Shown here one piece after another: positions 5,452 to 37,049 of a DNA stretch of 64,000 bases. This DNA comes from an uncultured Bacteroidales bacterium (GTDB lineage Bacteria > Bacteroidota > Bacteroidia > Bacteroidales > UBA932), in the NCBI GenBank assembly GCA_934725575.1, contig CAKVCK010000001.1, forward strand, positions 218,808 to 282,807, read 5' to 3'. Made by a program: the position numbers and the translations under genes. The notes beneath the pieces were generated by a model, which was not told where the DNA came from, made no database searches, and saw only the letters and a list, made by a program, of their open reading frames with translations. How positions within the stretch are numbered: the stretch's first letter is position 1; each line of letters starts with the position of its first letter.

Positions 5452-6081
5452 CTAAAGATTTTTAAGATAGGAGATTGAATCGGGACCTTCGTTGAAAAGG
5501 AGATCCATGATGGAAAGATTCGGAACGAAACCGTACTTTCGGGCAAAGACCTGGAAGTACGGTTTTTCCAGTTTGAGGTCTCTGAGAATGTTGTCTGGAC
5601 GTTTCGGATGGATCAGTTCCCTATAGTCAATTCCGTACCTACCGGTGTCCATCGGGATCTCACGGGAACGGACGGGAACATATTCATCGGTCATTCTCAA
5701 ATCGGCCGTGATGCCGGTCTTTCGGAGGAAAAACTTGATTATCTGGAGATTCAGGTCGAAGAGGGTCGCTGGACGAGAGTCAAGGATTCCGAACAGTTCG
5801 TCCTTGTAATATTCAAAATAAGCGGAAGATTCGTAAGCTGAGGCGATCGCCCGCTCGGTACGGATCAGCCACGGGGTTGAGTAATCCACCTTGATCTCGG
5901 TGATCGGCAATTCGTGCGTACTGCTTTCGTGAACAATCGGGAAATTAAGACTCTGAGGGCCGTCGGCGGCATAGTAACGGAAGCGGTTCCTCCAGGATTG
6001 CTTCTGATAGTGCTCGCAGGCCTCAAGGTAAACGACAGAAGGCTTCACCCTGTCCGGAGACAAGATGAAGTCTTTAGCCAT
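5452..6081 (-). CDS. WbqC-like family protein (tentative)
   Basis: Start placed at the internal Met (MAKDFILSPDR...) to avoid overlapping lpxA. Sequence is of the WbqC-like type (LNFPIVHESSTHELPITEIKVDYSTPW...). Family assignment from memory and uncertain. Confidence 0.5.
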   Translation of the reverse strand: MAKDFILSPDRVKPSVVYLEACEHYQKQSWRNRFRYYAADGPQSLNFPIVHESSTHELPITEIKVDYSTPWLIRTERAIASAYESSAYFEYYKDELFGILDSRPATLFDLNLQIIKFFLRKTGITADLRMTDEYVPVRSREIPMDTGRYGIDYRELIHPKRPDNILRDLKLEKPYFQVFARKYGFVPNLSIMDLLFNEGPDSISYLKNL

Positions 6082-6148
6082 CAATGCGAAATAGCTGACC
6101 GGCGGGAACCAGGCCACACTCAGCAGCACTGCCGCCTCCTCTTCAGAC

Positions 6149-7993: not shown

Positions 7994-8983
7994 CTATTCC
8001 TCGCCTTGACGCTTGAAAACGGCGTAGCTGCGGAGGTAGTTCTTGAGCGGGAGGGCCGGCGAGCCGAGGAACACCTGACCTGACTTACGAATATTTCCGA
8101 TCACGCCACACTGGGCTCCGATGGTCGTGTTGTCGGCGATGTTCAGATGCCCGGCGATGCCGACCTGGCCTGCGAGGATGCAGTTCTTGCCGATCTTCGT
8201 CGAACCGGCGATTCCGCACTGGGCGGCCATCACGGTGTTGTCGCCGATCTGGACATTGTGGGCTATCTGGCAGAGATTGTCGATCTTGACTCCGTTGCCG
8301 ATGATCGTGGACTCCATCTCGGACTTGTCGATGGTCGTCCCGGCCCCGATCTCGACATTGTTGCCGATGACCACATTGCCGATGTGCTCGATCTTCTCCC
8401 AAGTCCCGTCAGGAAGCGGGGCGTTGCCGAATCCGTCCGATCCGATGACAGCGTTGGCGTGGATGATCACATTGTCGCCGATGACCATTCCAGGATAGAT
8501 GACGACTCCCGGATAGATGATGCAGTGCGAACCGATCACGGTGTTGTCGCCGACATAGACATTCTCGTAAATCTTCGTGTAGTCCCCCACCTTGGCGTGA
8601 TGCCCGACGTAGGAATGGCTTCCGAGATAGACCTTCTTGCCGAACTTTGTGGTCAGGAACCAGGACGAGCGGAACCCTCTGTGTCTCTTGTCGGTACGTT
8701 TCTGTGTAGAGACATATTTCAGAAGATCGGCCAACGACTTGTAAGCGTCATCGACACGGACCATCGTGGAGGTAACGGCCTCTTTCGGAGTGAAGTCCTT
8801 GTTGACCAGCAGGACACTTGCCCTGCACGTGTAAACGTATCTCTCGTACTTCGGGTTGGCGAAAAAACACAGCTGCCCGGGTTTTCCGTGCTCGATCTTT
8901 GCGAATGACGTGACTGTCGCCTGAGGGTCACCCTCAACGGTTCCCTTGAGCACCTGAGCCAATTGCTTTGCGGTAAATTCCAT
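7994..8983 (-). CDS. lpxD: UDP-3-O-(3-hydroxyacyl)glucosamine N-acyltransferase
   Basis: Start at [14 protein letters not shown] (typical LpxD N-terminus; the ORF could extend to 9016). Long hexapeptide-repeat beta-helix. Confidence 0.9.
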
Positions 8984-9066
8984 CTTCTTTATGGCGATTA
9001 AATCTACAATTTCCAATTACGGAATGCAAAGAAAGCAATTTATTTTCATATTCACTAAAATATTCT

Positions 9067-13963: not shown

Positions 13964-14133
13964 CCGTAAAATCAACCCCCAGCCCCTTCGGGACAGCCCC
14001 GGTGGGGCACTGGGGAGCGGTCTCCCCAGACCCCTTGCGTCGCTACGCGCTGCGCGCGCTTTTCATCCAACCCCCAGTCCCTTCGGGACAGCCCCGGTGG
14101 GGCACTGGGGAGCGGTCTCCCCAGACCCCTTGC
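13964..14133. repeat. Two direct copies of a 75-bp GC-rich structured element, about 95 bp apart
   Basis: Copy 1 at 13964-14038 and copy 2 at 14059-14133, differing at one position (agCccc vs agTccc). Each contains internal hairpins (ggggag-cggt-ctcccc; ccccag...ctgggg; ccc-ttcg-ggg) and is much more GC-rich than its flanks. Confidence 0.7.
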
Positions 14134-14165
14134 GTCGCTACGCTCCGATTAACACGCTAGTTACC

Positions 14166-15094: not shown

Positions 15095-15781
15095 ATGCTG
15101 GTCGTTCTGGAAGGTTTGGACGGAGCTGGGAAATCCACGCAAGTCAAGAAGTTGAAGGCGTATCTCGAAAAGATATGCCCGGAATTGGAATACATTCACT
15201 TTCCAAGATACGACGCGCCGGTCTATGGCGATCTGATCAGCCGGTTTCTGCGCGGAGACTTCGGGAACAACGAGACGGTTCACCCTCAACTGGTAGCCCT
15301 GCTGTTCGCCGAGGACAGGCACGGAGCGGCCCCGGAGATGAAGAAGACACTGGCGGAAGGCGGCACGGTACTGCTTGACAGATACGTTTATTCCAACATC
15401 GCCTACCAATGCGCCAAGCTGCACACCTCCGAGGAAAGAGAGAACTTGCGCGAATGGATCCTCAACACTGAATATGGCGACTTCGGCCTCCCGAAGCCAG
15501 ACTTGAATATATTCCTGGACGTTCCCATCACATTCGTGGAAAGCAGGTTGGAGTCAGCGCGGACGGGGAAGGACAGGGAATATCTCCACGGCTCACAGGA
15601 TATTCACGAATCAGACATAGAGTTCCAGAAGCAGGTCCGCTCGATCTACAGGCAGCAGGTCGCGCTTGATCCGGATTTCATCAGGATAGACTGCTCGGAC
15701 GAGTTCGGGGAGATGCTGCCGCCGGACGGGATATTCGCAAAGGTAAAGAAAGTTATTGACGAACATATCGAAGCAAAATGA
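15095..15781 (+). CDS. tmk: Thymidylate kinase (dTMP kinase family)
   Basis: Start at MLVVLEGLDGAGKSTQ (P-loop), LID-region-like sequence. The stop overlaps the next gene's start as ATGA. Confidence 0.85.
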   Translation: MLVVLEGLDGAGKSTQVKKLKAYLEKICPELEYIHFPRYDAPVYGDLISRFLRGDFGNNETVHPQLVALLFAEDRHGAAPEMKKTLAEGGTVLLDRYVYSNIAYQCAKLHTSEERENLREWILNTEYGDFGLPKPDLNIFLDVPITFVESRLESARTGKDREYLHGSQDIHESDIEFQKQVRSIYRQQVALDPDFIRIDCSDEFGEMLPPDGIFAKVKKVIDEHIEAK

Positions 15782-17016
15782 ACAACGTTTTCCTCTTCAG
15801 GCTGAGAAGGCTGTGCGCTTTTTTGATTGGTGTGGTGTTCCTGCTCGCGGGAATATTCAAACTGCTTGATCCGGTAGGCGCGGGCCTTGTGATGGAAGGG
15901 TACTTGAGATTCCTCCATCTTGCATTCCTGCTGCCAGCGGCGAAGGCATTCGCCGTGGTTTTCGCACTTGCGGAGGCCATCCTCGGAGCGGCGATGATCA
16001 GTGGGGTCTGGAGAAAGCAGGTGGCGATCATCACCACTGCGATGATTGTCTTTTTCACCGTGCTGACGCTGTTTCTGGCCATATTCAATCCGGTAAGCTT
16101 GACTGACTGCGGCTGCTTCGGAGAGGTGATCCACCTGACCAACTTCCAGACGTTCCTTAAGAATCTGGTTCTGCTGGCATTGGCGATGACAGCGTTCCTG
16201 CCGTTCAAGAATTTCGGGAAGAACCGGAAGCGGAAATATGTCTCTTTCGGCATCGTGTCGGCCTCGATCCTTCTTTTTGCTGTCTATTCATTGACATCTA
16301 TCCCGATGGTGGACTACACCGCCTTCACTCCTGGCAGCGAATTGCTGGCGTCTGTTAGCAATGATGACGAGGAGGATGAAGCCTCCGGCAACTACAAATC
16401 CACGATCATCTACGAGAAGAACGGCCAGGAAGGAGCCTTCGACCTCGATCATCTTCCGGATTCAACTTGGACATACGTCCGCACGGAGACAATCCTGATC
16501 CACGGAGCGGACATCGAGGACAACAAGCCGGCGCTCTCGTTCACAGACTCATCAGGCAATTACCAAGACGAAAGGGCCACCTACGGCAATGTGCTTGCGG
16601 TTTCGGTCTATGACCCGGCCAAGACCAACGGATCTTTCTGGACAAGGATAGCCGATGCCCTTGACGGGGCGAAAGCCGCCGGGTTCACTCCCCTGCTGCT
16701 GATTTCCTCTACGAGGGAGCAGTTTGACAATATGTCCGTGATTGTACCGGATGTGCATTCCCGGCTGGCCGGATCGACATATTTCGCCGACAAGAAAGAG
16801 CTCGTCACCCTCAACCGCTCGAACGGTGGCGCGACTTGGTTCAACGATGGCCAGCTGATCCGGAAATATTCACACGGCCGCATCCCGTCGGACGACACTC
16901 TGCTGGAGATGACCGGTGATGATCCGACCGAGGAGATGCTGCGCTCCAGCACAAAGAGCCGCCTCCGCTTCCAAGGGTTCGCACTATACGTATTCGCGCT
17001 CCTGCTGATACTGTAA
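15778..17016 (+). CDS. MauE/DoxX-like integral membrane protein with a ~240-aa C-terminal extracytoplasmic domain
   Basis: Four TM helices with a CGCFG motif (LTDCGCFGEV) typical of MauE/DoxX-type proteins, then a soluble domain and a final hydrophobic segment. Family assignment approximate. Confidence 0.55.
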   Translation: MNNVFLFRLRRLCAFLIGVVFLLAGIFKLLDPVGAGLVMEGYLRFLHLAFLLPAAKAFAVVFALAEAILGAAMISGVWRKQVAIITTAMIVFFTVLTLFLAIFNPVSLTDCGCFGEVIHLTNFQTFLKNLVLLALAMTAFLPFKNFGKNRKRKYVSFGIVSASILLFAVYSLTSIPMVDYTAFTPGSELLASVSNDDEEDEASGNYKSTIIYEKNGQEGAFDLDHLPDSTWTYVRTETILIHGADIEDNKPALSFTDSSGNYQDERATYGNVLAVSVYDPAKTNGSFWTRIADALDGAKAAGFTPLLLISSTREQFDNMSVIVPDVHSRLAGSTYFADKKELVTLNRSNGGATWFNDGQLIRKYSHGRIPSDDTLLEMTGDDPTEEMLRSSTKSRLRFQGFALYVFALLLIL

Positions 17017-17250
17017 CACCTTGAGTCAAAGAATCATACTTTCAAATTCCACATTGTCATAGGAAATCAACATTTGCCCTAAGCGAGACCGAGGATTGGT
17101 TGACCATATTTGTTGGCAGCCAAGTGTGCTCCGGCACGCAGGATGTCGGCGGAATGCCAAAGGTTATCTTTCAGATTCTTAAGTTCTGTGTCAGTCATTT
17201 GTCCGAATGTTGGTTCAGACTATAAATATACACAAATTTCTTCTTATTGA

Positions 17251-17290
17251 TGAAAAATCCCCGAGACCGTTTGAATTGGCCTCGGGGATT
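17251..17290 (-). terminator. Rho-independent terminator downstream of the small RGG-tail ORF
   Basis: On the minus strand, gaatccccgag(g)cc ... gg(t)ctcggggatt hairpin followed by UUUUUC. Confidence 0.55.
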
Positions 17291-17332
17291 CATATTCAAT
17301 TGCCACCTCGTTTGATCGAGGTCGGATATTCA

Positions 17333-17728
17333 TTAAAAGAACTCCTCTGTGTTCTTGTCGAGGTTGTCGGAGTGGTCTTCGGTGTTGGCGTTGAAGTCGT
17401 TCTTCGGGCCGAAGTTCCTGTGGCCTCCGTTCCTGCGGTCGTCGCCACCTCTGCGGTCGAATCCGCCCCTGCGGTCATCGCCGCCGCGACGGTCGAAACC
17501 ACCTCTTCTGTCATCGCCACCTCTACGGTCAAAGCCACGACGATCGTCACCGCCCCTGCGGTCGAAGCCTCCTCTGCGGTCACGGTCTCCGCCACGGTCG
17601 TTGCCTCCGCGCCGTCCGAGGGGCCGGTCAATCACGGATCTCAGTCCGCTGCGGTTAAAAATGTAGAGGATGGAGAAAAGTCCCCCGAAAGGGTTGATGT
17701 TGTCAGATTTTAGTTGTATCTTCGCCAT
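17333..17728 (-). CDS. Small protein (~131 aa): short unique N-terminal region fused to an Arg/Gly/Asp-rich (RGG/DRR-repeat) disordered tail homologous to the PNPase C-terminal tail
   Basis: Start taken at MAKIQLKSDNINPF (an alternative start at 17794 gives 153 aa). The C-terminal ~85 aa match the pnp tail (...[31 protein letters not shown] identical). The last ~117 nt of CDS plus ~40 nt of 3' UTR are near-identical to 37060-37210. Confidence 0.5.
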   Translation of the reverse strand: MAKIQLKSDNINPFGGLFSILYIFNRSGLRSVIDRPLGRRGGNDRGGDRDRRGGFDRRGGDDRRGFDRRGGDDRRGGFDRRGGDDRRGGFDRRGGDDRRNGGHRNFGPKNDFNANTEDHSDNLDKNTEEFF

Positions 17729-17908
17729 GTCAGTGCCCGCTTGTATGGTTGATTTAGCAAGTACTGATTTAGGTGAAATCTCTGACATTACCAAGCCTTG
17801 GTAAGGGTTTCTTTATCAAGGCTTTTCACTTTTTGGCAGACTATAGGTCTGCGGAATATAGGATATTTGTCCGAATGAAAATGACGATAATCATTAGTTC
17901 ATAACAAT

Positions 17909-19678
17909 ATGACAAAATTTCTTGCTATCCTTAATTCGGTAGCTCTTCTGCTATGCTCTGCAATTTTCCTGAATGCACAGGAGCGCGATTCTCGTACCAG
18001 GACATACATTTCACCTTCACGTGTCGTATGGCAGAGTGATGCCGGTGTTCGCCTCTCTGATGTTCTGCTCAAACCTGGTAACGGCCAGGCCTACTGCAAC
18101 AATGACACCCCGGAATCGTACTGCATCATGAAATCAGGTGACGGAGTGCATCCTGCAATCCTTCTCGACTTCGGAAAGGAATTGCATGGAGGACTTCAGC
18201 TCGTCACCGGTCCAATCGTGGATCCTGTTCAAGTACGTGTACGCTATGGAGAATCAGCAAGCGAGGCGATGTCCGAAGTCGGCGGCAAGGGCGGTGCGAC
18301 GAATGATCACTCCATACGGGACCAGATAGTTTTACTTCCGATGATGGGCACGGTGGAAATCGGTAATTCCGGATTCCGTTTCGTGCGCATTGACCTCATT
18401 GACAATGACAGGGAACTGAAACTCAAGGAAGCAAGAGCCATTTCAATAATGCGTGACATTGAATATGTCGGTTCTTTCAGCAGCAGCGATGATCGCCTGA
18501 ACCGGATTTGGGAGACGGGAGCCTACACGGTGCATCTGTGTATGCAGAATTTCCTTATCGAGGGCATAAAGCGCGACAGGCTTGTATGGATGGGCGATTC
18601 CTATCCGATGGTCATGACGATTGCGACTGTCTTCGGAAACAATGAGGTGGTCCCCAGAACACTTGACTGGATGCGTGACATAACTCCTCTTCCAAAATGG
18701 ATGAACGGGTTCTCTGCGACTTACTCGATATGGTGGATGCTTTGTTGTCATGACTGGTATCGCCACACCGGAAATCTGGACAATCTTCTTGAGTCCAGAG
18801 GATACATCACGGAGCTGTTGCGCTTGTTGATTTCCAAAATATCTTCTGATGGACGTGAAAACCTTAACGGGCCACGTTTCCTTGACTGGCCGACTGAAGG
18901 CAACAAACAGGCAAAGGATGTAGGAATTCAGGCCCTGATGGTTCTTGCAATGCAGTGTGGGCAGGATTTTGGAACTATATTCAATGACCAGCAACTCAAG
19001 AATGACTGTGCTGCAGCCGAGAAACTCCTCACTAAACCAGCAAACAAACTCTACGACGAGTTCCTCAAGTCCGATGTCGCTCCTGATGCGCCGGGGTCAA
19101 AGCAGGCTGCGGCGCTGATGACTCTCGCAGGTCTTACGAGTGCCAAGAACGCAGACAAGGATATCCTTTCCTACAATGGAGGCCATGGATTCTCGACTTT
19201 CTACGGATATATTATGCTTGAGGCAATGGCACGTGCAGGTGACTGGCAGGGTGCGCTCGACATCATCCGCAACTATTGGGGAGCGATGATTGACCTCGGA
19301 GCGACGACATTCTGGGAAGATTTCAACCTTGACTGGCTTCCGAACGCGGCCGGCATTGACGAACTTGTCCCGGAAGGGAAAAAGGACATTCACGGCGATT
19401 TTGGCGCATATTGCTACCTGGGTTTCCGTCACAGTCTGTGTCATGGCTGGGCATCCGGTCCGACAGCATGGATTAGCCATCATGTCCTCGGTATCGAAAT
19501 CCTCGAACCGGGTTGTGCCCAAGTCCGTATCACCCCGCATCTTGGTGACCTCGACTGGGCTGAAGGCTCGTTCCCGACGCCATACGGCCCAATCAGAGTA
19601 CGCCACGAAAGACAGTCTGACGGAAGTATCCACACGGAAGTCTCCGTCCCGGACGGTGTCGAAATTGTCGGCAAATAA
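17909..19678 (+). CDS. Alpha-L-rhamnosidase-like glycoside hydrolase (GH78 six-hairpin catalytic domain)
   Basis: 589 aa with a signal peptide. (alpha/alpha)6 domain motifs (WMGDSYPM, GHGFSTFYGYIMLEAMARAG, TFWEDFNLDW, CHGWASGP). Shorter than multi-domain GH78 enzymes. Confidence 0.8.
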   Translation: MTKFLAILNSVALLLCSAIFLNAQERDSRTRTYISPSRVVWQSDAGVRLSDVLLKPGNGQAYCNNDTPESYCIMKSGDGVHPAILLDFGKELHGGLQLVTGPIVDPVQVRVRYGESASEAMSEVGGKGGATNDHSIRDQIVLLPMMGTVEIGNSGFRFVRIDLIDNDRELKLKEARAISIMRDIEYVGSFSSSDDRLNRIWETGAYTVHLCMQNFLIEGIKRDRLVWMGDSYPMVMTIATVFGNNEVVPRTLDWMRDITPLPKWMNGFSATYSIWWMLCCHDWYRHTGNLDNLLESRGYITELLRLLISKISSDGRENLNGPRFLDWPTEGNKQAKDVGIQALMVLAMQCGQDFGTIFNDQQLKNDCAAAEKLLTKPANKLYDEFLKSDVAPDAPGSKQAAALMTLAGLTSAKNADKDILSYNGGHGFSTFYGYIMLEAMARAGDWQGALDIIRNYWGAMIDLGATTFWEDFNLDWLPNAAGIDELVPEGKKDIHGDFGAYCYLGFRHSLCHGWASGPTAWISHHVLGIEILEPGCAQVRITPHLGDLDWAEGSFPTPYGPIRVRHERQSDGSIHTEVSVPDGVEIVGK

Positions 19679-19691
19679 AATTGTTGATTGC

Positions 19692-21515
19692 CTATCTTGC
19701 GGCCACCGAAGACAATGCTCTCCAGTCGCCGCAAGGGACTTTCACTGTTTTTGTCTTGTTGCCGCAGCGGACGACAATGCTGTCGGAACCGGAGGCGTTC
19801 AAGATATAGACGCTTTTTCCGCGACGGGGCACATCAATGACGGCATTGTCCTGATATACGGCGATTATGAGTTCCGTATCGCTCTCTGCCTCGATGACAG
19901 GGTAGCCAAGTTCTGGATGGTGTGGACGGAATTCGCTTTTGAGCAGGGTCTCGCGATGTTCGGAGGCGAATTTCATCCATTTTCTCATGACGTCAAGTTG
20001 TTCTTCAGGGATATTCCTCAGCATTGTCGAGTATTGTACGACTCCGAAAATGGAATTGATTATCGCTCTTCCCACATTTTCCGGAGTTTCGGAAATATTC
20101 CATTCCAACATGTCTGAATGCACGGCAGTCGAACCGCTCGTCAGTCTGAGGGAGGCGATTCTCATTCTGTTGTCTTTGGCGTTGCCAGGACAGTCTGCTG
20201 CTCGGAACATGTTTCCGTACTGTCTGATGGCCGGACCTATGTACTGCTGTCTGAACTCAATGAGAATATCCGGTTTGATGGCTCTCAGAGCGGATGAAAC
20301 CTCTTTCATCAGCAGGTTCACTGCCTCGCTGAGATTCATGATGTCCCTTCCGGCATAATTCTCTTTTACGGCAGGATCCTCTCCCTGAAATCTGAAACTG
20401 TCGATGAAATCGAGTTTGAATCCATCCAGATTCCAGTCTTTCAATGCCTTTGTGTACAGTTCCACAAGATGTTTCCTGACCTCCGGGAAACGTGGGTCAA
20501 GCACAGCGCAACGGCTGCTCCTGTCATTGTAGAGGAACTTTCCTTCAAACTTCTTGTAGGAATCGCTGTTCCATCCGATGTATGGAACGCTGTACCAGAC
20601 AAGATATTTCATTCCTAGATCATGGACTGCTGAGACGTGTACCGCCATGTCCGGGAATTTTTTCGGGGCCGGTCTCCAGTCTCCACAGAAGGCATAACCT
20701 CTGTTTCCGTCAGTTGTCTGCCAACCGTCATCGAGAATTACGGTCTTCATTCCGAGATCTGCAGCAATACGGCACTCCTGTTCAATCGCTTCTGAGCTCA
20801 CATCCTGATGGAACTGGTACCAGCTTGAGTACAGCGGTTCAAATGCGGAATCGTTCACCGGAAAAGCATCGTAACCGTTCTCACGGCTCATCCACTCGGA
20901 TGCGTCACGGATGCTTTCTGCCCAGAATACAGGTCGTTTGTCAAGCAGAATTTTAGTCTCATAATGCTTTGCGGGAGCTTCTTTCTCTTTGAAGAATCTC
21001 AGTTCTGTGCAGATTGCGCAACCTTCTTCCATGACGCCGAGTACGGCATCTACCTTGCGGAGTACTTCTGAACAGGCGATTGTCAGGCAATTCGTATTGT
21101 TGTCATTGAAATACTCATATAGGGGCATCCTGTAGGCGAGTGAACTGCTGGCATTGGAGTGGCCCCAGAAAGGGTCCAGGTGCGTGCCGCAATTCACGTC
21201 CGGACTCCAGAAGTTGAAAACTCCTTTCTGCGGGAACGTGAAATATACATTGAATCTTGCCGGGGTAGCCTCGGACGCCGCATCCATAGAGATGCTGATT
21301 ATTTCTTTCCCTCCATCATTTTCTACCGATGCTGTAAATTTCCAGTCCCCGGGATTCTCGGAGACAATCACAATCTCATCTACAAGCGAACTGCTCAGTG
21401 CCGGGGCGACAATTGTTCCTTTGGACGCAAATGGATTGTCCGTCCAAGTGCTTTGGGCGTATGAAACGCATAAAGACAGAAAGGCTAATGCGATTGTGAG
21501 TATGTGTTTGTACAT
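19692..21515 (-). CDS. Glycoside hydrolase with an alpha-galactosidase-type (GH36-like, clan GH-D) TIM barrel
   Basis: 607 aa with a signal peptide. KTVILDDGWQ...GDW...KKFPDM...GMKYLVW pattern typical of the GH36/GH27 catalytic core. Confidence 0.6.
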   Translation of the reverse strand: MYKHILTIALAFLSLCVSYAQSTWTDNPFASKGTIVAPALSSSLVDEIVIVSENPGDWKFTASVENDGGKEIISISMDAASEATPARFNVYFTFPQKGVFNFWSPDVNCGTHLDPFWGHSNASSSLAYRMPLYEYFNDNNTNCLTIACSEVLRKVDAVLGVMEEGCAICTELRFFKEKEAPAKHYETKILLDKRPVFWAESIRDASEWMSRENGYDAFPVNDSAFEPLYSSWYQFHQDVSSEAIEQECRIAADLGMKTVILDDGWQTTDGNRGYAFCGDWRPAPKKFPDMAVHVSAVHDLGMKYLVWYSVPYIGWNSDSYKKFEGKFLYNDRSSRCAVLDPRFPEVRKHLVELYTKALKDWNLDGFKLDFIDSFRFQGEDPAVKENYAGRDIMNLSEAVNLLMKEVSSALRAIKPDILIEFRQQYIGPAIRQYGNMFRAADCPGNAKDNRMRIASLRLTSGSTAVHSDMLEWNISETPENVGRAIINSIFGVVQYSTMLRNIPEEQLDVMRKWMKFASEHRETLLKSEFRPHHPELGYPVIEAESDTELIIAVYQDNAVIDVPRRGKSVYILNASGSDSIVVRCGNKTKTVKVPCGDWRALSSVAAR

Positions 21516-21592
21516 ATGAACTGTTTAAAAAAATGTGATTGCTTCAAATGTGAGAATGCAAGATGTGTGAAATTCTGGCGAATAATATGACA

Positions 21593-23521
21593 CTACTCCG
21601 AAGGAGCATCATTGTATGCCCTGTATTCGCCCTTCATTACGTTCAGGGTTTTTGGAAGCCAGACTTTGTAGCGGGTGGATTTGTCCCAAGTATTGCCTGC
21701 TGAGGCGAAGTCGCAGAGGTGGATCTGGCGAGGCTTGCCGTTGCCTTCAAGGTCTGCTCCGGCAATCATCGGGGCTGTAAACGCCATCCACGCGAAATCG
21801 TTGTTGTCTGCCGGGGTCAGGGCGACGCTGCCGTCCTCCGAAGATTGGATTACCACACTTTCATCCACGAAACCGTCGTCGAAGCGCGAATCCCTTGCAA
21901 GGACTATAGGGCCGCGCACAATAGCCTGATGCCCATTCAGTTCGAACAGATGTGGCGTAAGGTCCAGCGAGAGTTCAATGCGGTCACCTTTCTTCCACCT
22001 GCGTTCTACTTTCGCATATTCGCCTGCAGAAAGATTCTCAAGATTTATTTTCAATGTATCTGTGCCGCTGATTACACTTGCCGTCGTTGTTTTGCTCCAC
22101 TGTGGTATCCTCAACGCCAAAGTGAATTCTGCGGGCTTTGCCGGCGAGAGTTCTATGGAGATGTTTCCGGAAACCGGATAATTGCCATGGAGACTGATTC
22201 CCATAGAGTTGCGTTTGTCCAGCGAAATCTCAGCCTCAGAATCACCATAATGGTTTATCTTCAGGCAATCTCCTTCTGTGATAAAAGCGAGAGCCGGAAT
22301 CATCGCGAAGGCGCGGGGACCATTGGCATTGCAGCAGTTTATATTCATATGGCATTGTTTTTCACCTTCCACTCTCCAGCCCTCAAGCGGGGTATATTTG
22401 GCAATCTGGCTTCCGTCGCACTTCATCGAACCGAGAATGGCGTTGTAGAATGTCTTCTCGATTTGGTCCGCGTAGCGGGAGTCTCCGCAGAATTTCAGGA
22501 GTCTGCTGCAGAGCTGCATCCAGGTGAAGCCGACGCAGGTCTCCATAGTGTGGTAGGTCGGAATTGTCTGGAGTGATTTTCCTCCGTACCAGCACTCGAC
22601 CGAGCTGCCTGAACCGGCGATGTTGATTTCCTCTTCGATTATGTGTGATACGCTCTTTCGTACGGCCTCGTAATCTGCTTCGTTTCCGGTCACTTTATAG
22701 TATTCGAGCAGTCCTTCGTAGCAGGACATCATTTCGTATGCCTTGGCTCCGTTTTCGTAGGAAAACCACTTTGTCTGAGGATGCGGAAAGCGCAGAGCCA
22801 CAGGTGTATCGGAGCGGCTGACCAGTCTTGGGCCGTCCTGGGTCTCCCACTGTGTGACGATGTCTGTCGCGAAATCGAGATAGCGTTTGTTTCCGGTTAT
22901 GTCGTACAGTTTCATAATCGGTTCGAGCACGGAAGAACTTGCCATGCCCCGGTACAGTCCGCATTTTACAATCTTGGCATTCTTGGATTTGAGCTGTGAA
23001 ATGAGGTGGTCTGCAACACCCGATGCCGCAGCAAGGGCCTGGCTGTCACCTGAAAGTTCGTACCATCCGAGCAGCCCCAGCATTGTGTACTTCCGTCCCC
23101 AAATGTCCCATTCGCGCAACTGATAATCAGGCGCATAGTTCCCGATGTAGCCGTCAGGTCCCTGGGTTTCCATGATATGTCTGACTGAAGCGGCAATCTT
23201 TTCATAAAGTGCTGCATCACCGGTGTAGCGGTACGTCTCGATTGCTCCCAAGGTCCATTTCCCCCAAAACTCGCTTTGCCATCGCCAGGATTCGTTCCTG
23301 TGACGGAAAGGCTCCACAAGTTCATCTACATCCTGTCCCATGACACGATGCAGGATGCAGTCGTCGATTCTTCTTCCTACATGTCCATTGATTTTCACCG
23401 ACTTCACCTTCATTTCCGCAGTCTTTGCGTGGCCGATGTTTCCTCCTGCGCAGATTGGGCAGGCGAAAATCGTTAGCAGAGCGCTCATGACAAATGTCTG
23501 AACACTAAGATTTTTTTTCAT
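21593..23521 (-). CDS. Glycoside hydrolase family 127 (beta-L-arabinofuranosidase / DUF1680 type)
   Basis: 642 aa with a signal peptide. Size and a Cys-rich HMNINCCNANGPRAF segment match the Zn-Cys3 site of HypBA1-type GH127. (alpha/alpha)6 N-terminal domain. Confidence 0.85.
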   Translation of the reverse strand: MKKNLSVQTFVMSALLTIFACPICAGGNIGHAKTAEMKVKSVKINGHVGRRIDDCILHRVMGQDVDELVEPFRHRNESWRWQSEFWGKWTLGAIETYRYTGDAALYEKIAASVRHIMETQGPDGYIGNYAPDYQLREWDIWGRKYTMLGLLGWYELSGDSQALAAASGVADHLISQLKSKNAKIVKCGLYRGMASSSVLEPIMKLYDITGNKRYLDFATDIVTQWETQDGPRLVSRSDTPVALRFPHPQTKWFSYENGAKAYEMMSCYEGLLEYYKVTGNEADYEAVRKSVSHIIEEEINIAGSGSSVECWYGGKSLQTIPTYHTMETCVGFTWMQLCSRLLKFCGDSRYADQIEKTFYNAILGSMKCDGSQIAKYTPLEGWRVEGEKQCHMNINCCNANGPRAFAMIPALAFITEGDCLKINHYGDSEAEISLDKRNSMGISLHGNYPVSGNISIELSPAKPAEFTLALRIPQWSKTTTASVISGTDTLKINLENLSAGEYAKVERRWKKGDRIELSLDLTPHLFELNGHQAIVRGPIVLARDSRFDDGFVDESVVIQSSEDGSVALTPADNNDFAWMAFTAPMIAGADLEGNGKPRQIHLCDFASAGNTWDKSTRYKVWLPKTLNVMKGEYRAYNDAPSE

Positions 23522-23576
23522 ATTTATGTGCCTTTTAAATTTTGTACAACTAAGTTACGAAAAAATGTCCTTCTCT

Positions 23577-24530
23577 CTAGGACATCTTTACCGGAATGAT
23601 GAAGCCGTTTTCATCAAATTCGAGACGGTCAATGCAGACCACGCGGTTGTCTCCGTCGGTGGTATCGAGCGGATGGCGATGGTAGATAATGTAGTAATTG
23701 TCGCCACGTCGCACTACGCTGTGATGTCCGGCGCCTGTTCCGTGCTCAGTGTCGCCTTTAAGAATAGTACCTACTCTTTCGAACGGACCGTAAGGAGTGT
23801 CGGAAATGGAGTAGGCGACACGGTAGTTATCCTTGCGCCAGCTTCCTTCGCTCCACATGAAGTAGAACTTTCCGTTACGCTGAATCATAAACGGTCCCTC
23901 TACATAACCTTCAGGTGTGACCTCACGGAAAAGAGTTCCGTCCTCGAAAGGAACAATGGATGTGAAGTCATCGGAGAGCCGGACGAGATTGCAGTGGCCC
24001 CAGCCGCCGTAGAACATCAGCCAATCTCCGGATGCCGGATCCTGATAGACGAACTGGTCGATTGGCTGTGCCCCATTGACGATGTCGTTAAGAAGTGGCT
24101 TGCCGAGGAGGTCGCGGAAAGGGCCTTCGGGCTTGTCGGACACGGCTACACCTATGCCTCCTGTTTCTCCCTCATGAACATCGTTGCAGGCGAAGAAAAG
24201 GAAGAACTTTCCGTCCTTGTTCACGATGGCAGGAGCCCAGAGAGCCTTGTGAAGCCAGCTTATCTCTTTGTCTGTGATGATGTTGCTGTGCTTGGTCCAT
24301 GTCTTGAGGTCTTTGGAGGAGAATGCATCCATATGGAGCTGTTCCTCAAAAGGATGCGATGCTGTGGGATATATCCACAGTTCATCATCGATTATTATTC
24401 CCTCCGGGTCTGCATACTGTCCTTCGAAAAGCGGGTTTGTCCATCCCGTCCACTCCGATGTCTTCGGTGCACATGCGGATGTTATGAAAAAAGAAATTGA
24501 CGCAATTAATAGAATTGTTCTGAATTTCAT
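23577..24530 (-). CDS. Glycoside hydrolase family 43 (arabinofuranosidase/xylosidase type)
   Basis: Start at MKFRTILLIASI... (lipobox-like SAC). Five-bladed propeller motifs (YADPEGII, LWAPAIVNKDGKFFLFF, GGWGHCNLVRLSDD, EGPFMIQRNGKFYFMWSE). Confidence 0.85.
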   Translation of the reverse strand: MKFRTILLIASISFFITSACAPKTSEWTGWTNPLFEGQYADPEGIIIDDELWIYPTASHPFEEQLHMDAFSSKDLKTWTKHSNIITDKEISWLHKALWAPAIVNKDGKFFLFFACNDVHEGETGGIGVAVSDKPEGPFRDLLGKPLLNDIVNGAQPIDQFVYQDPASGDWLMFYGGWGHCNLVRLSDDFTSIVPFEDGTLFREVTPEGYVEGPFMIQRNGKFYFMWSEGSWRKDNYRVAYSISDTPYGPFERVGTILKGDTEHGTGAGHHSVVRRGDNYYIIYHRHPLDTTDGDNRVVCIDRLEFDENGFIIPVKMS

Positions 24531-24624
24531 ATGTTTTGTCATTATAAAAGTGGCTGAGACCGCTGTGTGGAATCAGCCACTTTCAGTTAGTAATCAATGT
24601 GTCAGTGCATAGTCAAGCCCGGAA

Positions 24625-26817
24625 TCAGTTGCCCTGATATGAACCTGGCCATACGGCTGAACTGTTTCCGTAGATGTCGAAAGCATTGATGCTGTCGAGC
24701 CAGCCGAGGAAGTCCTCACCCGCCTTGCTTCCGTCATATATCTCAGCAGAACCGGCATAAAGCTTTCCTGTGTTGGTGTTGCTGTATGACTTTATTGCAG
24801 TGCGGAGCTGTTCAAGCGTGAGCTTCGTGAGGCTTGTGCTGCCGTTCCAGAGGTAGTGCTTTGAACCTGAGTTCCAAGAGAGGGCGAGTGCCGCAGCCGC
24901 AGCCCTGTTGGCAAATGTGTCGTCATTTGCCGAAGCCTCGTACTGGCCATTGGCATTGATGCTTCCGACTATCACGTTGCCGCCGAGAGATTTCAGTTTT
25001 CTGCCGGAAGACGACATGTCTATGGCTGTTCTGTCCTGCTCCTGGATGATGAGGCTGTTGATGAGTCGTGAACCGCTCTTCGGGTCTGATTCGCAGCGGA
25101 TGGCCGGATTGGCATTGGATGCGACGATTGTGCTTGACGCGATGAGCATTCCTCCTGAACCGTTTACGGCTCCGGTTGCGCCGCAGCCGCTGTCATTTCC
25201 GGCGAAGGTTACATTGTGAAGACAAATGTTGCCTCCGACATCATTGAGATGCACGAGCAGGCCGAAACCGCCTCCGCCAAAAGTGTTGTTGACAAAGGTA
25301 CATGCATTGAGATAGACCCTGCTCTCTTTCTGGGCGAGACGTATGAGACCACGTACACCGCCTTCCGCACGACAAGCGTCGAAGATTACGTTGTCAAGCT
25401 TTGCAAGTCCCTTCCTGACCATAATTATCGGATTCTGTCCGCCGGATGCCGTACATTTCTTGAATGTGCAGTTCGTGAAGTTCACGCGGGAGTCACCGGA
25501 CCCACCGGCTGCCAACATGATGCAACCGTCGCCGCCGCTCTTCAAGTTCGTGAATGTGATGCCGTCGAACGTAGGTTCCGTCTGGTTGCCGAGGGTGATG
25601 AAGCGGTTGCTTCCGCCACCGTCGAATACGGTTTCAGAACCCTTGCGGCTGACATCTGTTCCTGTGCTGGCAGGGTCGTAGCCGCCGTGCACACGGAATT
25701 TTACTCTGGATCCGTATCCGGAGTATTCCACTTTTACCTGGGATACTGAATAGGTTCCGCCGGTAAAGTAGAAGTCTCTGTCATCCACGTTGTCGGCATT
25801 CTCATCAGACTCTGCCTGACTTCCGTTCTTCTGCTTGATCATATTGAGGAACTCTGTCATTCCCATTGCATTCTCCCATGAGTGACCGTCTCTTGTTCCA
25901 CATGCCTGCGGCTTCACGAAGTAAGGAAGCAGAGGAACTTTCTCAGCATCGCCTCCAGGAATGACAATGGTGCTTTCGTCCCAAGGATCCACGGAAGGAG
26001 TGTCAATGGAGATGATGGTTTCCGAGATGTTTATTTTCATGTCATATCGGAAGCCTTTCTTGAGCTCAGGCACACCGGTTAATGTGATGTCCTTTCCTTT
26101 GTAGTTGAAGGTGACGAATACCTTTGAATCGTCAGCCTCAGAAGGGACTACAATCGCAGTGTAGGTCGTTCCGTTCTGTCCTGAGATTTTTCCTTCCGCA
26201 GCAACAATATGTGGGCTGATGTACATCCTGTCTGAGTTCGGATGTCCTTCGGTGAATCCGGTCGAAGTCCACACGCGGAATCCCTGGACACGGGCGCTGC
26301 CTTCAATTCCTGACAAAGTGAAACTTACCTTGGCCATCTGGCGTTCCATTTCCAGACGGAGGCTTCCGTCGCTTGTCTTGACGGCATCAGCAACTGTGCA
26401 GGTCATATAATCAGCCGCAGCAAGACGGTCTGCCGTGCGCTGCGAAGACTGGAGTTCAAAGTTGCCGAAAGTTGTCGATGTCTCCGTGGCAGGGTAGAAT
26501 GCCGAGTAGCTGACAGGAGCGGAACCCCAGCGCAGATAATAATTGTCTGTTGTCTTCCATCCTTTGTCTGTCAGTCTGTAGGTCACATGACCGTCGTTGC
26601 AGAGCAGTGCAATCATGTCTCCTTTGTTGAACTCGGTTTCTTTTCCGTCCGTAACCGGATTCGACTTCGTGTATGGAGAAGCTATTTCCGGGATTATGCG
26701 TATGGCACGTTCGTCACTGTCAAACGAAGGCTGCACTTTTTCCTTCTCGCAAGAAGAAAATGCAAGCATCGCTGCAAGGACGACCGTTATTTTTGATATT
26801 CCTGATTTCATAGTCAT
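24625..26817 (-). CDS. Surface lipoprotein: N-terminal fimbrillin/Mfa-like (SGBP-like) domain plus C-terminal right-handed parallel beta-helix (pectin-lyase fold; DUF4957/DUF5123-like)
   Basis: Lipobox AFSSCEK. N-terminal domain carries an AADYMT motif. The C-terminal half has the NxTxxxCxA/GG repeat pattern of beta-helix proteins (VNFTNCTFKKCTASGG..., NACTFVNNTFGGGG..., LHNVTFAGNDSG). It is a paralog of the next gene. Confidence 0.65.
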   Translation of the reverse strand: MTMKSGISKITVVLAAMLAFSSCEKEKVQPSFDSDERAIRIIPEIASPYTKSNPVTDGKETEFNKGDMIALLCNDGHVTYRLTDKGWKTTDNYYLRWGSAPVSYSAFYPATETSTTFGNFELQSSQRTADRLAAADYMTCTVADAVKTSDGSLRLEMERQMAKVSFTLSGIEGSARVQGFRVWTSTGFTEGHPNSDRMYISPHIVAAEGKISGQNGTTYTAIVVPSEADDSKVFVTFNYKGKDITLTGVPELKKGFRYDMKINISETIISIDTPSVDPWDESTIVIPGGDAEKVPLLPYFVKPQACGTRDGHSWENAMGMTEFLNMIKQKNGSQAESDENADNVDDRDFYFTGGTYSVSQVKVEYSGYGSRVKFRVHGGYDPASTGTDVSRKGSETVFDGGGSNRFITLGNQTEPTFDGITFTNLKSGGDGCIMLAAGGSGDSRVNFTNCTFKKCTASGGQNPIIMVRKGLAKLDNVIFDACRAEGGVRGLIRLAQKESRVYLNACTFVNNTFGGGGFGLLVHLNDVGGNICLHNVTFAGNDSGCGATGAVNGSGGMLIASSTIVASNANPAIRCESDPKSGSRLINSLIIQEQDRTAIDMSSSGRKLKSLGGNVIVGSINANGQYEASANDDTFANRAAAAALALSWNSGSKHYLWNGSTSLTKLTLEQLRTAIKSYSNTNTGKLYAGSAEIYDGSKAGEDFLGWLDSINAFDIYGNSSAVWPGSYQGN

Positions 26818-26824
26818 TTCCCTA

Positions 26825-29020
26825 TTATTTTATAGTTATTGACATTTGGCCGGAGGAGGCCGATTTTGTTGTAGAAATGTTAATTGTGAGCTCGGCTGTC
26901 TTTCCCGGAGCGAGTGTCACATCAGACGATGATTCCCAGACATACTGGCGTTTGTTGAAAGTCGCCTTGACCGACAGGGAGCCGATTGTGGCAGTCTGCG
27001 GCACAGTGATGAGTTCATAAGAATCCTCTCTGACATTAGGGAACATATTGACAAGGGCACCGTCAGCGACAACTTCAGGAGAAGCCGCATTGAGGTCACA
27101 TTTTCCTTCTGCCTTCAGTCCGCCTACGGAGAGAGATGCGATTTTCGACGTCTCTATCGGCGTACCGTCCAGGGTGAGTTTTATAATCAGCCTTGTGTTG
27201 AGATGACCTAGTTTAAGCTGAAGCTTTCCGTCAGCAAGATCAGTTGATGGATTCACACTGCCTTTCCAGAGCACGAAATCTGCTGCTGTGAGTTCCGCTG
27301 CGGTCGCCTGATTGCTTGGACATGACACAGGAACAAAGCCGTCAACCGCATCTGCATAAGGGGCATACGCGGTGACTGTTACCGTCGTACCCTTGCCGTC
27401 CCAAAGCATGGTTTCTCCGTCATCTGCAACATATTCGTCTCCGAGCAGAACCATCTTCTTGTTGTAGGAATAAACACCTTTCGGGTTTGTGAGGATAAAG
27501 CCGAACGAATCCGGACGGCTGGCGGTGTTTCCGGAAAAAGTATCGGATGATACGCTGAAGCGCAGAGCCTTGGAAGCTTCACCTTCAAGGCACGGGTCGT
27601 ATGCACCAGGAAGGAGTTTTGCCGGATTTCTCGACTTGCCGCGGCCGTCCACAGCAAAACCGTCACACCATTCTGCGAAGACCTTACCGATTTCCGGAAC
27701 AGAACATGATGCAGGGTTGAATTCCCGTGCATAACCATCGAGTTCTGATGCTGTGGCGTATGTCTCGGGGGAAAGTTTGGAGTTGTCCCAAACATATGCC
27801 CCATCCTCAAGAGAACCGAAATTCTTCAAGTCCGTGTCGTATGTGACATCCGAAGGGGCGGACTGGAGTTCACCGGCTACCTTGTTGAATATGTTGTGTC
27901 CGCCTGAAACTGCGACCCTTCCGCTGCCGTTAAGCAGGAATCCAGGCGCGCCGTTTGTGTTCAGGCTTATGTTGTTGGCAAAGAAGGACCCATTTCTTGC
28001 GTCTGACTCGCAGCGTATTCCGGCAGTCGTGTCATCAGAAATGATTGTAGAGTTGATGACCAGCATCGCTCCTCCGCCATTGACGGTTCCGCCCGCTCCT
28101 TTGTTGCCCACGGCGTTTGAGCAGAAAGTCGAGTTGTTGACGCAGATTGTTCCTGATGAGAGCTGCAGACCGGAGCCCCAGTCGCTTTTCACGCTGTTGT
28201 CGTGAATGCTGCACCTGTCGAGGAACAGTATGGCTTTGTCGTTGTTGCATCTGAGTGCACCGCCTCTCGAAACTCCTGAGCATCCGCTCAATTCGCAGGC
28301 TTTAAGTCTTGCCTGGCCTGAGCGGACATAGACTGCGGCGCCACCGGCATAGCCGTTAGTGGTGGTGGCGCTCACGCAATTCTCGAAGCGGCAATTCACA
28401 AATTCAATCCAAGTTTCGGCATCCCCATCGACAAAGACACCGGCCCCGCTCTTCTGCGCGGAAGCAGTCTTTTCGTTGATATAGCCATTGCGGAATGTGA
28501 TCCCGTCAAATGACGAGTTGCCTCCATAGACGCAAAGAAGTCCGCAGTCCCCCTCGTCGGCCCTGTTGTTCTTGTTTACATCGCCGCTGAAAACTGTCGC
28601 GTGGTTCACAACGTCTCTGACGCTTACATCCGTACCTTTGCTCAGAATGCTGTATCCACCCATCACAGAGCCGATATTCTTCCTTATCTCCGGACCGAAA
28701 ACGGAACCGCTCGACATATAATAGTTGCCTTCAGAGACATGGATTTTAGTCTTTGACAAATCCGTCTGGTCTGTAAGCAGACCCAGGAATGTGTCTGCAT
28801 CAAAGGCATTCTCCCACGATGAACCGTCCATTTCTCCCTCACCATATGGAGTGACGAATATGGCAGTTTCCTTCTTTCCTCCGAAATCTTCGTCTTCGAG
28901 GCTGTCATCGTCCGAGGACGCTGACGGAGGAGGAAGCATCTGATATGTCTTCTGACAAGAGCCGGTTCCTAAAAGGGAAAGGGCGGCCAATGTCATAAAA
29001 AATGATCTTCTGATATTCAT
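26825..29020 (-). CDS. Surface lipoprotein, paralog of the previous gene with reversed domain order: N-terminal beta-helix, C-terminal fimbrillin/Mfa-like domain
   Basis: Lipobox LGTGSCQ. The beta-helix repeats (FVNCRFENCVSA..., LKACELSGCSG..., LFLDRCSIHDNS..., VNNSTFCSNAVG) lie in the N-terminal half. The conserved segment GGGAMLVINSTIISDDTTAGIRCESDARNGS matches GSGGMLIASSTIVASNANPAIRCESDPKSGS in the paralog. An AADFVLW motif is C-terminal. Confidence 0.65.
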   Translation of the reverse strand: MNIRRSFFMTLAALSLLGTGSCQKTYQMLPPPSASSDDDSLEDEDFGGKKETAIFVTPYGEGEMDGSSWENAFDADTFLGLLTDQTDLSKTKIHVSEGNYYMSSGSVFGPEIRKNIGSVMGGYSILSKGTDVSVRDVVNHATVFSGDVNKNNRADEGDCGLLCVYGGNSSFDGITFRNGYINEKTASAQKSGAGVFVDGDAETWIEFVNCRFENCVSATTTNGYAGGAAVYVRSGQARLKACELSGCSGVSRGGALRCNNDKAILFLDRCSIHDNSVKSDWGSGLQLSSGTICVNNSTFCSNAVGNKGAGGTVNGGGAMLVINSTIISDDTTAGIRCESDARNGSFFANNISLNTNGAPGFLLNGSGRVAVSGGHNIFNKVAGELQSAPSDVTYDTDLKNFGSLEDGAYVWDNSKLSPETYATASELDGYAREFNPASCSVPEIGKVFAEWCDGFAVDGRGKSRNPAKLLPGAYDPCLEGEASKALRFSVSSDTFSGNTASRPDSFGFILTNPKGVYSYNKKMVLLGDEYVADDGETMLWDGKGTTVTVTAYAPYADAVDGFVPVSCPSNQATAAELTAADFVLWKGSVNPSTDLADGKLQLKLGHLNTRLIIKLTLDGTPIETSKIASLSVGGLKAEGKCDLNAASPEVVADGALVNMFPNVREDSYELITVPQTATIGSLSVKATFNKRQYVWESSSDVTLAPGKTAELTINISTTKSASSGQMSITIK

Positions 29021-29032
29021 AGTTATCCTTCC

Positions 29033-30805: not shown

Positions 30806-30809
30806 AATT

Positions 30810-33779: not shown

Positions 33780-33814
33780 TTTATCGATATTATTAGTTTT
33801 TAGTTAAGGTTTGC

Positions 33815-34942: not shown

Positions 34943-35176
34943 GGTTTATTAGCTTTTTTCTTGTTGGAAACTCCGGATTATCCGGCTTGTCCCATAATTG
35001 TGCACGCCGCAAAGGTATAAACTAAATCGATATATTATAGCACATTTTCCGCCGCAATTCCTGCAAAGGAAATACAGGTAGGTATAGAGAAATGTTATTT
35101 TATTGAATATCAAAACATTCCCCGATTCGAACAAGTCGAACCAGGGAAATGTATTTTTGTCATTTTTTAGCGATAT

Positions 35177-37016: not shown

Positions 37017-37049
37017 AAAAGAGGATGACCGGAAAGGTCACCCTCTTTT
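37017..37049 (-). terminator. Putative rho-independent terminator downstream of pnp
   Basis: Imperfect 10-bp stem gagg(a)tgacc / ggtca(c)cctc with a ggaaa loop, flanked by A4 and T4 runs. Weak U-tract. Confidence 0.45.

Follow-up and report, generated by a model that had tools for sequence, protein, structure and literature searches.

A small chimeric open reading frame joining an IS1380 transposase start to a PNPase tail, probably the scar of a polysaccharide-utilisation locus inserted at the pnp 3' end of a Bacteroidales genome

Disordered tails rich in arginine and glycine occur at the C-terminus of proteins of RNA metabolism such as DEAD-box helicases, RNase E and Rho. The 3' ends of tRNA and tmRNA genes are duplicated around genomic islands by site-specific integration, and islands are also exchanged through crossover in flanking core genes, as with the capsule and O-antigen loci that lie between conserved flanks. 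The IS1380 family of insertion sequences (IS) takes in ISEcp1 as well as IS942 and IS1186 of Bacteroides. Chimeric open reading frames (ORFs) at IS rearrangement junctions combine the truncated 5' end of a transposase gene with a fragment of a housekeeping gene through a microhomology join.

The ORF described here lies in a 64-kb stretch of Bacteroidales DNA (the window, which means the whole of that stretch) and couples the start of an IS1380 transposase to the Arg/Gly/Asp tail of polynucleotide phosphorylase (PNPase, gene pnp). It is most probably a chimeric relic of rearrangement, a scar, and not a gene that evolved for a function. It has the composition of other chimeric ORFs at IS junctions, it too lies near further gene fragments (hsdM, DUF1016), and it has decayed in various ways from strain to strain. 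The difference is that the fusion is in frame and takes in a complete, undamaged disordered tail with its UTR and terminator, which is why it resembles a proper small gene. The tail is like the RGG-like tails in composition and likely disorder, and the real PNPase carries RGGFDRRGGDDR repeats behind its S1 domain; in the small ORF, however, this putative RNA-binding tail is joined to neither a catalytic nor an RNA-binding domain. Like the islands at tRNA and tmRNA genes, the locus leaves its target gene intact and has the 3' end of that conserved gene repeated directly on either side. However, no integrase is encoded among its ORFs of 200 aa or more, a common core site is lacking, and an IS fragment makes up one of its junctions. 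As in the exchange of islands through core genes, one insert is found in different backgrounds with crossovers within the flanking homology, and here one side of the insert lies in the conserved gene pnp, while the other is joined at a 5-nt microhomology. Unlike those islands, it has a right arm that consists only of the duplicated tail of about 150–320 bp, and its mechanism is inferred from sequence comparison. Only papers of a general kind came up in a literature search on homology-facilitated illegitimate recombination. The features of the locus are collected in Table 1; comparison sequences are given by L numbers and proteins by P numbers.

Table 1. Features of the chimeric ORF, the inserted locus and the resident pnp gene (window positions).
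Feature	Positions	Strand	Remarks
hsdM-fragment stretch	17079-17256	minus	promoter-like segment 17191-17254 and a 39-codon hsdM 5' piece with stop
Terminator B	17255-17291	minus	14-bp stem followed by a U run (UUUUU); loop 9 nt
Copied pnp 3' UTR	17289-17332	minus	small hairpin 17303-17324 just past the stop codon
Chimeric ORF	17333-17728	minus	ATG start, 131 aa; IS1380 transposase residues 1-40 in frame with a 91-aa PNPase-type tail
Second copy of PNPase C-terminal tail, RGG-type allele	17336-17611	minus	blastn and tails of relatives
IS/pnp-tail junction	17607-17611	minus	5-nt microhomology CGCGG
Left-end fragment of IS1380-family insertion sequence	17607-17862	minus	NF033539 and alignment to IS copies
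Polysaccharide-utilisation locus (PUL)	17909-36736		between the two tail copies
Terminator A	37012-37054	minus	19-bp stem; -40.6 kcal/mol, z -7.8
Resident pnp 3' UTR	37048-37091	minus	homologous to the relic UTR; small hairpin right behind the stop codon
Resident pnp	37092-39545	minus	RNase PH (two), PNPase, KH and S1 domains; RNG-type tail at 37095-37361

Annotation pipelines label the chimeric ORF as a hypothetical protein (P0001–P0004). Upstream-extended gene calls start it at an ATG at 17788 or a TTG at 17794 and so reach into the 5' UTR of the IS; an exact look-up of the 151-aa gene call of the window found nothing on record. A Pfam scan gave 0 families, and by that scan the RNase PH, KH and S1 domains are absent from the ORF, which shares with PNPase only the tail behind S1. 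An NCBIfam match to NEAT_IsdX2 was rejected as a low-complexity artefact (21 bits against a cut-off of 1400). The clustered RGG and RG repeats, for example in units RGGFDRRGGDDRR, are those of an RGG motif as judged by sequence, and the tail region is open in several frames. At the RNA level, an Rfam scan of 16900–18000 returned only a Hovlinc match at chance level (E 0.19).

Positions 17289–17611 on the minus strand repeat the pnp 3' end at 37048–37361, with the start of the tail at 17611 and 37361, respectively. A blastn comparison, which the sequence-only reading had proposed for fixing the boundaries of the homology, placed the match beyond chance: 17289–17446 and 37048–37205 are identical at 148 of 159 positions (93%, E 1e-64), and weaker matches in the register of the repeats extend up to 17611 and 37361. 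A repeat search recovered the pair 17289–17458 and 37048–37217 at 91%. The two tail copies are direct repeats, both on the minus strand and 19.76 kb apart. That reading had described the coding end and the UTR as almost identical in the two copies. For the coding end this stands, with four instead of three mismatches in the last 117 nt (three in the last 105 nt, that is, 102/105), but the 44-nt portion of the 3' UTR is only about 82% identical. It was right in seeing the Arg/Gly/Asp repeat region as homologous but diverged, the units being RGG in one copy and RNG in the other, and in calling the ORF start unrelated to PNPase, which is borne out for the first 40 residues (the IS1380 fragment). 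The separate terminator that it gave the ORF was also found, as the strong hairpin of terminator B. A 96-nt region around this hairpin folds at -39 kcal/mol (z -6.4) and has the make-up of an intrinsic terminator; a simple terminator scanner missed it because of the 9-nt loop. Terminators A and B are unrelated in sequence. No third RGG/DRR tail was found in any frame of the window, and the only other R/G-rich stretch, at 40125–40214 (plus strand), turned out to be an out-of-frame reading of a gene on the opposite strand.

The IS fragment contains the terminal repeat CCTATATTCCGCAGACC (17846–17862), the 5' UTR and the first 40 transposase codons. The IS-derived DNA reaches about 135 nt upstream of the ATG of the ORF, and the 5' UTR holds a conserved hairpin (17793–17824). 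The transposase part begins with MAKIQLKSDNINPFGG and ends with LGRRG. Taken by themselves, the first 43 residues of the ORF match positions 1–38 of NF033539 with an E value of 0.037 and 12.6 bits, where the cut-off for the full-length family is 180 bits. Dozens of database proteins with identical first 41 residues run on as '...LGRRGMTKAAFTHGDVFASMFGSYLCGGDCIEDVMDIKPFW', and partial homologues with those 41 residues match NF033539 with E values from 1.6e-36 to 1e-22; the best of them (P0042, E 1.6e-36) spans positions 1–221. The left end of the IS and its 5' UTR align to IS copies that lie in unrelated flanks of other genomes. On these alignments, the N-terminal part of the ORF is judged to be a piece of an IS1380 transposase, 40 codons long, that does not form a separate domain. 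The left terminal repeat in the window opens with CCTA.ATTC, as in other members of the family, and the transposase N-terminus is homologous to NF033539 1–38, though at a score far below the full-length cut-off; what differs is that only 256 bp are left, with neither catalytic domain nor right end, and the fragment therefore cannot transpose. The DDE catalytic domain is absent since the transposase frame stops at codon 40, where the pnp tail begins. A right IS end was not found in the window, nor were inverted repeats of at least 40 nt; the only other match to CCTATATTCCGCAGACC in the window, at 209–225, has three mismatches and is at chance level. One-ended transposition of the neighbouring locus in the style of ISEcp1 was considered and rejected, because the DNA carried along in such an event lies downstream of the right end, whereas the PUL is found upstream of the IS fragment, next to its left end.

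Compared with its relatives, the window has 19.4 kb inserted within the pnp 3' end, with a copy of the tail and UTR on either side, so that the insert is flanked by a direct repeat of about 320 bp of pnp tail plus UTR. The pnp body is followed by tail A, its UTR and terminator A; then come the PUL and the IS 5' fragment, and after these tail B with its UTR and terminator B. Beyond them lie the neighbours that directly follow pnp in the relatives. The PUL encodes a GH78-like rhamnosidase (its sole plus-strand gene), a melibiase-like protein, GH127, GH43, two Mfa-like proteins, SusD, SusC, GDPD and DUF6377. The susC-type gene (30810–33779) adjoins that of SusD (29033–30805), and this pair together with the glycoside hydrolases marks the locus as a PUL. 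The ORFs of 200 aa or more between 17909 and 36736 are all of PUL type, with no integrase or recombinase among them. The comparison places the junction of IS and tail at the right-hand end of the 19.4 kb PUL inside the pnp 3' end. The same comparison shows the join itself as an illegitimate, microhomology-mediated one, from codon 40 of the IS1380 transposase to the first codon of the pnp tail. The shared CGCGG has the same frame in both parents: ...CGG CGC GG/C ATG in the IS and ...CCA CGC GG/A GGC AAC in pnp (the slash marks the end of the shared letters).

The DNA on the far side of the relic is also known from pnp in other genomes. Terminator B lies behind the real pnp in L006, L011, L012, L017, L032 and L039, and the promoter-like segment of Table 1 trails the real pnp in L011, L012 and L039. 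The MauE-family gene that adjoins the relic (15778–17016) is found directly beside pnp, in the same convergent orientation, in L006, L015 and L020. Between this gene and the relic, the window has a 5' fragment of the type I restriction-modification gene hsdM (17079–17198), of which longer remnants occur in L060 and L005. DUF1016 fragments are present in L060 and L002, and L015 has the full-length gene. The neighbourhood of the relic is a patch of decayed genes.

The distribution of the tail was surveyed in one genome per species, covering at least 49 loci. Among the matches listed, the C-terminal motif of the tail sits only on PNPases or on relics of pnp 3' ends, which speaks against the mobile tail cassette that the sequence-only reading had envisaged. 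The hosts belong to a clade of uncultured gut Bacteroidales, including 'Alistipes sp. CAG:435', 'CAG:514' and UBA/MAG Bacteroidales. Some tail-bearing contigs are evidently mis-binned under other names. The real PNPase of this clade has an Arg/Gly/Asp tail of about 100–105 aa that ends in a highly conserved acidic segment of 35 aa, and the tails fall into two classes: an RNG type, found in the resident pnp, L003, L004 and L005, and an RGG type, to which the relic belongs. This two-class tail is apparently undescribed; a literature search on C-terminal extensions of PNPase in Bacteroidetes gave nothing relevant.

Through the residues EEFF, the tail of the relic is identical in protein sequence to the real PNPase tail of L015 (94.8% at the DNA level over 305 nt). 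The resident tail is 96–99% identical to the tails of L003 and L004 and 68–85% identical to RGG-type tails. On this comparison, the relic tail is an intact, different allele and does not come from the resident pnp. Over its final 105 nt, the resident pnp agrees with the pnp of most other species at 95–103 of 105 positions, and the KH/S1 region agrees at 89–95%. The 102/105 between the two copies of the window is therefore at the level seen between species, and gene conversion is not needed to explain the near-identity. Sliding windows, which at 150 nt are noisy, give the resident pnp a mosaic appearance, with an L015-like part from 38000 to 37550 followed by an L003/L004-like tail; by the same noisy measure, its UTR and terminator A are closest to L015, and they look native relative to L015 and L020. 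This suggests mosaicism on both sides of the insert.

The same IS/tail junction was found in 13 independent contigs (the window and 12 others), each time beside the same rhamnosidase gene. Most of the comparison sequences are metagenome contigs or MAGs, but an assembly artefact is ruled out for the junction itself by the 13 contigs, whose samples and assemblers are independent of one another. A 21-nt junction pattern gave nine metagenome matches, four of which (L059, L061, L063 and L065) are due to chance and are otherwise unlike the window. The ORF varies greatly among the 13. Its full length of 131 aa is shared by the window and L060; L001 has a 125-aa allele, and L057 and L064 have one of 107 aa. 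All RGG repeats are deleted in a 71-aa allele (L052, L053, L058 and L062). In a 111-aa allele (L054, L055 and L056), the stretch from 17470 to 17086 is deleted and the reading continues out of frame into 17026–17100, and in L002 an IS5-family element is inserted at the position of window 17574. The RGG repeats are thus lost in 4/13 alleles, and the C-terminal end is lost in 4/13. The form lacking the repeats occurs on three different N-terminal haplotypes, and must have arisen more than once or have recombined. The N-terminal 40 codons contain three substitutions (Y/N, S/G and R/Q), all of them non-synonymous, and no synonymous one. The length changes that keep the frame carry no information on selection, since each repeat unit is a multiple of 3 nt long. 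With four repeat-less alleles in 13, three out-of-frame deletions, one IS5 insertion and a non-synonymous to synonymous ratio of 3:0, the ORF does not behave as a conserved coding gene. The C-terminal 35 codons are intact in 9/13 alleles, and the window copy is without amino-acid change there; this is compatible with a recent origin and exchange with pnp 3' ends, and also with some constraint. A further observation counts against the reading as a relic: the 5' part from the IS has only 3 differences in 260 nt between strains, while the flanks differ by about 4%.

The 3' part of the relic and the DNA downstream of it vary between strains in the way that real pnp 3' ends vary between species. 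In L001 and L053, this region is 99.5% identical to the pnp 3' end and downstream DNA of L004 over 426 nt, up to the end of the L004 contig. In L052, it is 99.2% identical to L005 over 2.4 kb, including a TlpA-like gene, and the crossover can be seen there some 60 nt into the final 105 nt of coding sequence. L004 and L005 look like the empty sites for L001/L053 and L052, respectively, as does L006 for the window. By these matches, homologous exchange with pnp 3' ends does occur at the relic. The right-hand contexts of L001 and L053 could conceivably have arisen through chimeric assembly at the conserved stretch of about 150 nt. The join in L052 is less likely to be such an artefact, since the overlap there is only 10 nt.

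Two routes to the present arrangement can be envisaged. The join could have been made through homology-facilitated illegitimate recombination, in which a crossover in pnp would be coupled to an illegitimate join at CGCGG; alternatively, a circle carrying one copy of the tail might have integrated by a single crossover. From then on, the tail of the relic would have served as the right homology arm and pnp as the left one, and the PUL could have been gained by relatives, or precisely lost from them, via ordinary homologous recombination. Gain or loss by way of these arms would explain why the same junction is seen beside three different native contexts downstream of pnp. A donor genome in which pnp is directly followed by the PUL and a full-length IS1380 element was not found. 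The ORF probably stays open only because the fusion happened by chance to be in frame and because the tail, read in its native frame, contains no stop codons. It would perhaps be transcribed from the IS promoter, with transcription ending at terminator B; given a plausible promoter region in the IS and a strong terminator, the ORF may be expressed. Nothing indicates selection on its product.

Three other explanations deserve to be weighed against an origin as a rearrangement scar. The pnp 3' end of the resident gene may have been duplicated locally and have diverged, with conversion keeping the last ~150 nt alike. The direct repeats on the same strand, 19.76 kb apart, with an identity that is high at the 3' end and lower in the repeats, are what such a history would leave. 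However, the tail of the relic is an intact alternative allele, identical as a protein to the PNPase tail of L015, and its terminator and promoter segment follow the pnp of other species and not the resident one. The identity in the last 105 nt equals the conservation between species, and conversion should have homogenised the UTR too, which is only about 82% identical. Gene conversion between the copies of the window, which the sequence-only reading had suggested as a means of keeping the tails identical, was rejected on the same grounds: the alleles differ, and 102/105 falls within the range of 95–103/105 between species. A local duplication is thus unlikely. An insert with the 3' end of a conserved gene repeated directly on both sides also recalls a site-specific integrative element that uses the pnp 3' end for attachment, with the relic as a partial copy, of the attR type, of the gene that was targeted. 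In L013 and L005, inserted DNA is likewise surrounded by 116–119-bp duplicates of the pnp 3' end, whose left boundaries agree within 5 nt. What makes this very unlikely is that no integrase or recombinase is encoded in the inserts of L013 and L005, or by any ORF of 200 aa or more within the 19.4 kb inserted in the window, which is an ordinary PUL. In addition, the boundary of the repeat in the window, at the start of the tail, differs from that in L013 and L005, and the junction on the right consists of a microhomology join to an IS fragment, not of a conserved core site.

The remaining possibility is that the IS promoter drives expression of a stand-alone RGG protein with a function, whose tail competes with the PNPase tail, or partners it, for RNA or for a protein that would bind the conserved acidic C-terminus. 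The in-frame fusion, the ATG behind the 5' UTR of the IS and the strong terminator would suit such a gene, and so would the presence of the junction in 13 or more contigs of independent origin. In 9/13 alleles the C-terminal 35 aa show no change, and the 71-aa alleles keep exactly that end. Against this, the N-terminus is a truncated piece of transposase without any Pfam family and its polymorphisms all change the protein. The repeats are missing from 4/13 alleles and the C-terminal end is missing from 4/13, and changes in repeat length that preserve the frame merely reflect units that are multiples of 3 nt. The conserved C-terminus is explained by recent descent from, and recombination with, real pnp 3' ends, and the fusion is absent from the species-representative genomes among the matches listed. 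A stand-alone RGG protein is very unlikely. The sequence-only reading had offered such a protein as one possibility; given the IS1380 origin of the N-terminus and the loss of repeats, the frameshift and the IS5 insertion among the 13 contigs, it is not supported. What that reading had named as the opposite case, a segmental duplicate of the pnp 3' end without function, comes near to what the evidence shows.

As a candidate new gene, the chimeric ORF matters little, as it is a fusion of two fragments. Its value as a rearrangement scar is that of a worked example: an ORF that is in frame, has a start codon and a terminator, and is homologous to an essential enzyme can be convincing and still be a scar. 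The relic also dates and maps the insertion of the PUL into the pnp 3' end, with occupied and empty sites in three backgrounds. Cargo is found at the pnp 3' end in at least three lineages, and each time a duplicated pnp 3' end flanks it: in the lineage of the window it is the 19 kb PUL, in L013 it consists of two lipoprotein-like genes, and in L005 it is other DNA. The left boundary that L013 has in common with L005 could hint at a specific initiating event there. It may be speculated, with a rather low expectation of being correct, that the conserved last ~110 nt of pnp and the 3' UTR form a recurrent landing pad in this clade, the duplicates acting as portable homology arms. If this were true, cargo would move between species, or be shed precisely, without a dedicated recombinase. 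The case of the PUL bears on how gut Bacteroidales may exchange loci for glycan degradation without the machinery of mobile elements.

In the real PNPases of this uncultured Bacteroidales clade, a tail of about 100 amino acids made of Arg/Gly/Asp repeats stands behind the S1 domain (window 37095-37361; pnp in the compared loci L003-L044). The number of repeats is variable, and two allele classes, RNG-type and RGG-type, can be distinguished. The tail terminates in an acidic segment that is highly conserved in the clade. Identity between species over the last 105 nt of pnp is mostly 93-98%, whereas it is 89-95% for the KH/S1 region. No account of the Arg/Gly/Asp repeat tail was found in the literature on C-terminal extensions of PNPase in Bacteroidetes.

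A small hairpin with the core CCTC...GAGG immediately follows the pnp stop codon and is kept in all species, as well as in the relics. Its loops vary between species, and the inner pairs of its stem vary on both sides (CCTCG/CGAGG, CCTCA/TGAGG and CCTCAA/TTGAGG). The hairpin could serve to stabilise the 3' end of the pnp mRNA or to regulate that mRNA.

Coordinates of the hairpins, repeats, gene fragment and pnp duplicates
Feature	Location	Strand	Remarks
Post-stop hairpin, relic	window 17303-17324		species alignment columns ~170-200
Post-stop hairpin, resident pnp	window 37062-37085		species alignment columns ~170-200
76-nt repeat pair	window 13973-14048 and 14068-14143		G+C-rich; 99% identical, 95 nt apart
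hsdM 5' fragment	window 17079-17256	(-)	type I restriction-modification methylase; Pfam HsdM_N
pnp 3'-end duplicate pair, L013	2973-3091 / 6000-6118		119 bp, 97.5% identity
pnp 3'-end duplicate pair, L005	6223-6338 / 8905-9020		116 bp, 94% identity

In two other species (loci L013 and L005), the pnp 3' end is likewise present twice: the second copy, which is shorter, sits 2.6-2.9 kb downstream of the gene and is separated from it by other genes. These duplicates begin 35-37 codons ahead of the stop, with start points no more than 5 nt apart. Two amino-acid changes in the L013 copy are absent from every real PNPase compared. In L005 the copy is joined to a 5' fragment of hsdM in a different reading frame.

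An hsdM fragment is likewise found beside the relic in the window, where 39 codons are followed by a stop. The 171-bp unit at 17086-17256 recurs in L005 with 96.5% identity; L039 has it in inverted orientation (92%). Another compared locus, L060, holds a longer hsdM remnant together with DUF1016 fragments, and its insertion point corresponds exactly to window 17085/17086. The region of hsdM and DUF1016 remnants looks like a decayed defence locus. Between this unit and the relic tail lies terminator B, which in L006 follows a real pnp. The outer stem is the same in both, but the inner part of the hairpin is inverted (window 17258-17288, GAGGCCAATTCAAACGGTCTC, versus L006 6355-6390, GAGACCGTTTGAATTGGCCTC). 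This inversion is a hairpin 'flip', which matches the expectation for template switching within an inverted repeat.

Further repeats of 76 nt (CAACCCCCAG.CCCTTCGGGACAGCCCCGGTGGGGCACTGGGGAGCGG...) are located just upstream of a pterin-binding (folP-like) gene on the minus strand, whose start is near 15089; they were found in L062 and L064 as well.

Several contigs with this Bacteroidales pnp or IS are deposited in public MAGs that bear unrelated names (L006, L007, L015, L020, L022, L023 and L046). The labels concerned are Eggerthellaceae, Methanomethylophilaceae archaeon, Lachnospiraceae, Bulleidia and Gastranaerophilales, and pnp, on the contigs that carry it, is 88-95% identical to the window. 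The names probably reflect binning contamination.

Many copies of the same IS in other genomes are truncated or rearranged too (database proteins P0008-P0014; L008 6001-6225; L021 314-964), and none of the sequences retrieved held a full-length copy. The transposase gene is broken at 41-50 codons and followed by unrelated sequence in P0009, P0010, P0013 and P0014; other copies, among them P0008 and L021 (after about 160 codons), show an internal deletion. In the IS1380 fragment of the window, the 5' UTR is nearly invariant among the aligned strains (over about 140 nt, no differences from the window in L001, one in L002), and divergence in the flanks is 1-4%. The fragment's left end lies 46 nt ahead of the start codon (17909) of the GH78-like rhamnosidase gene (region 17846-17908), and the fragment is oriented away from that gene. 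In Bacteroides, elements of the IS1380 family provide promoters for adjacent genes, and the fragment might therefore influence how the GH78-like rhamnosidase gene is expressed.
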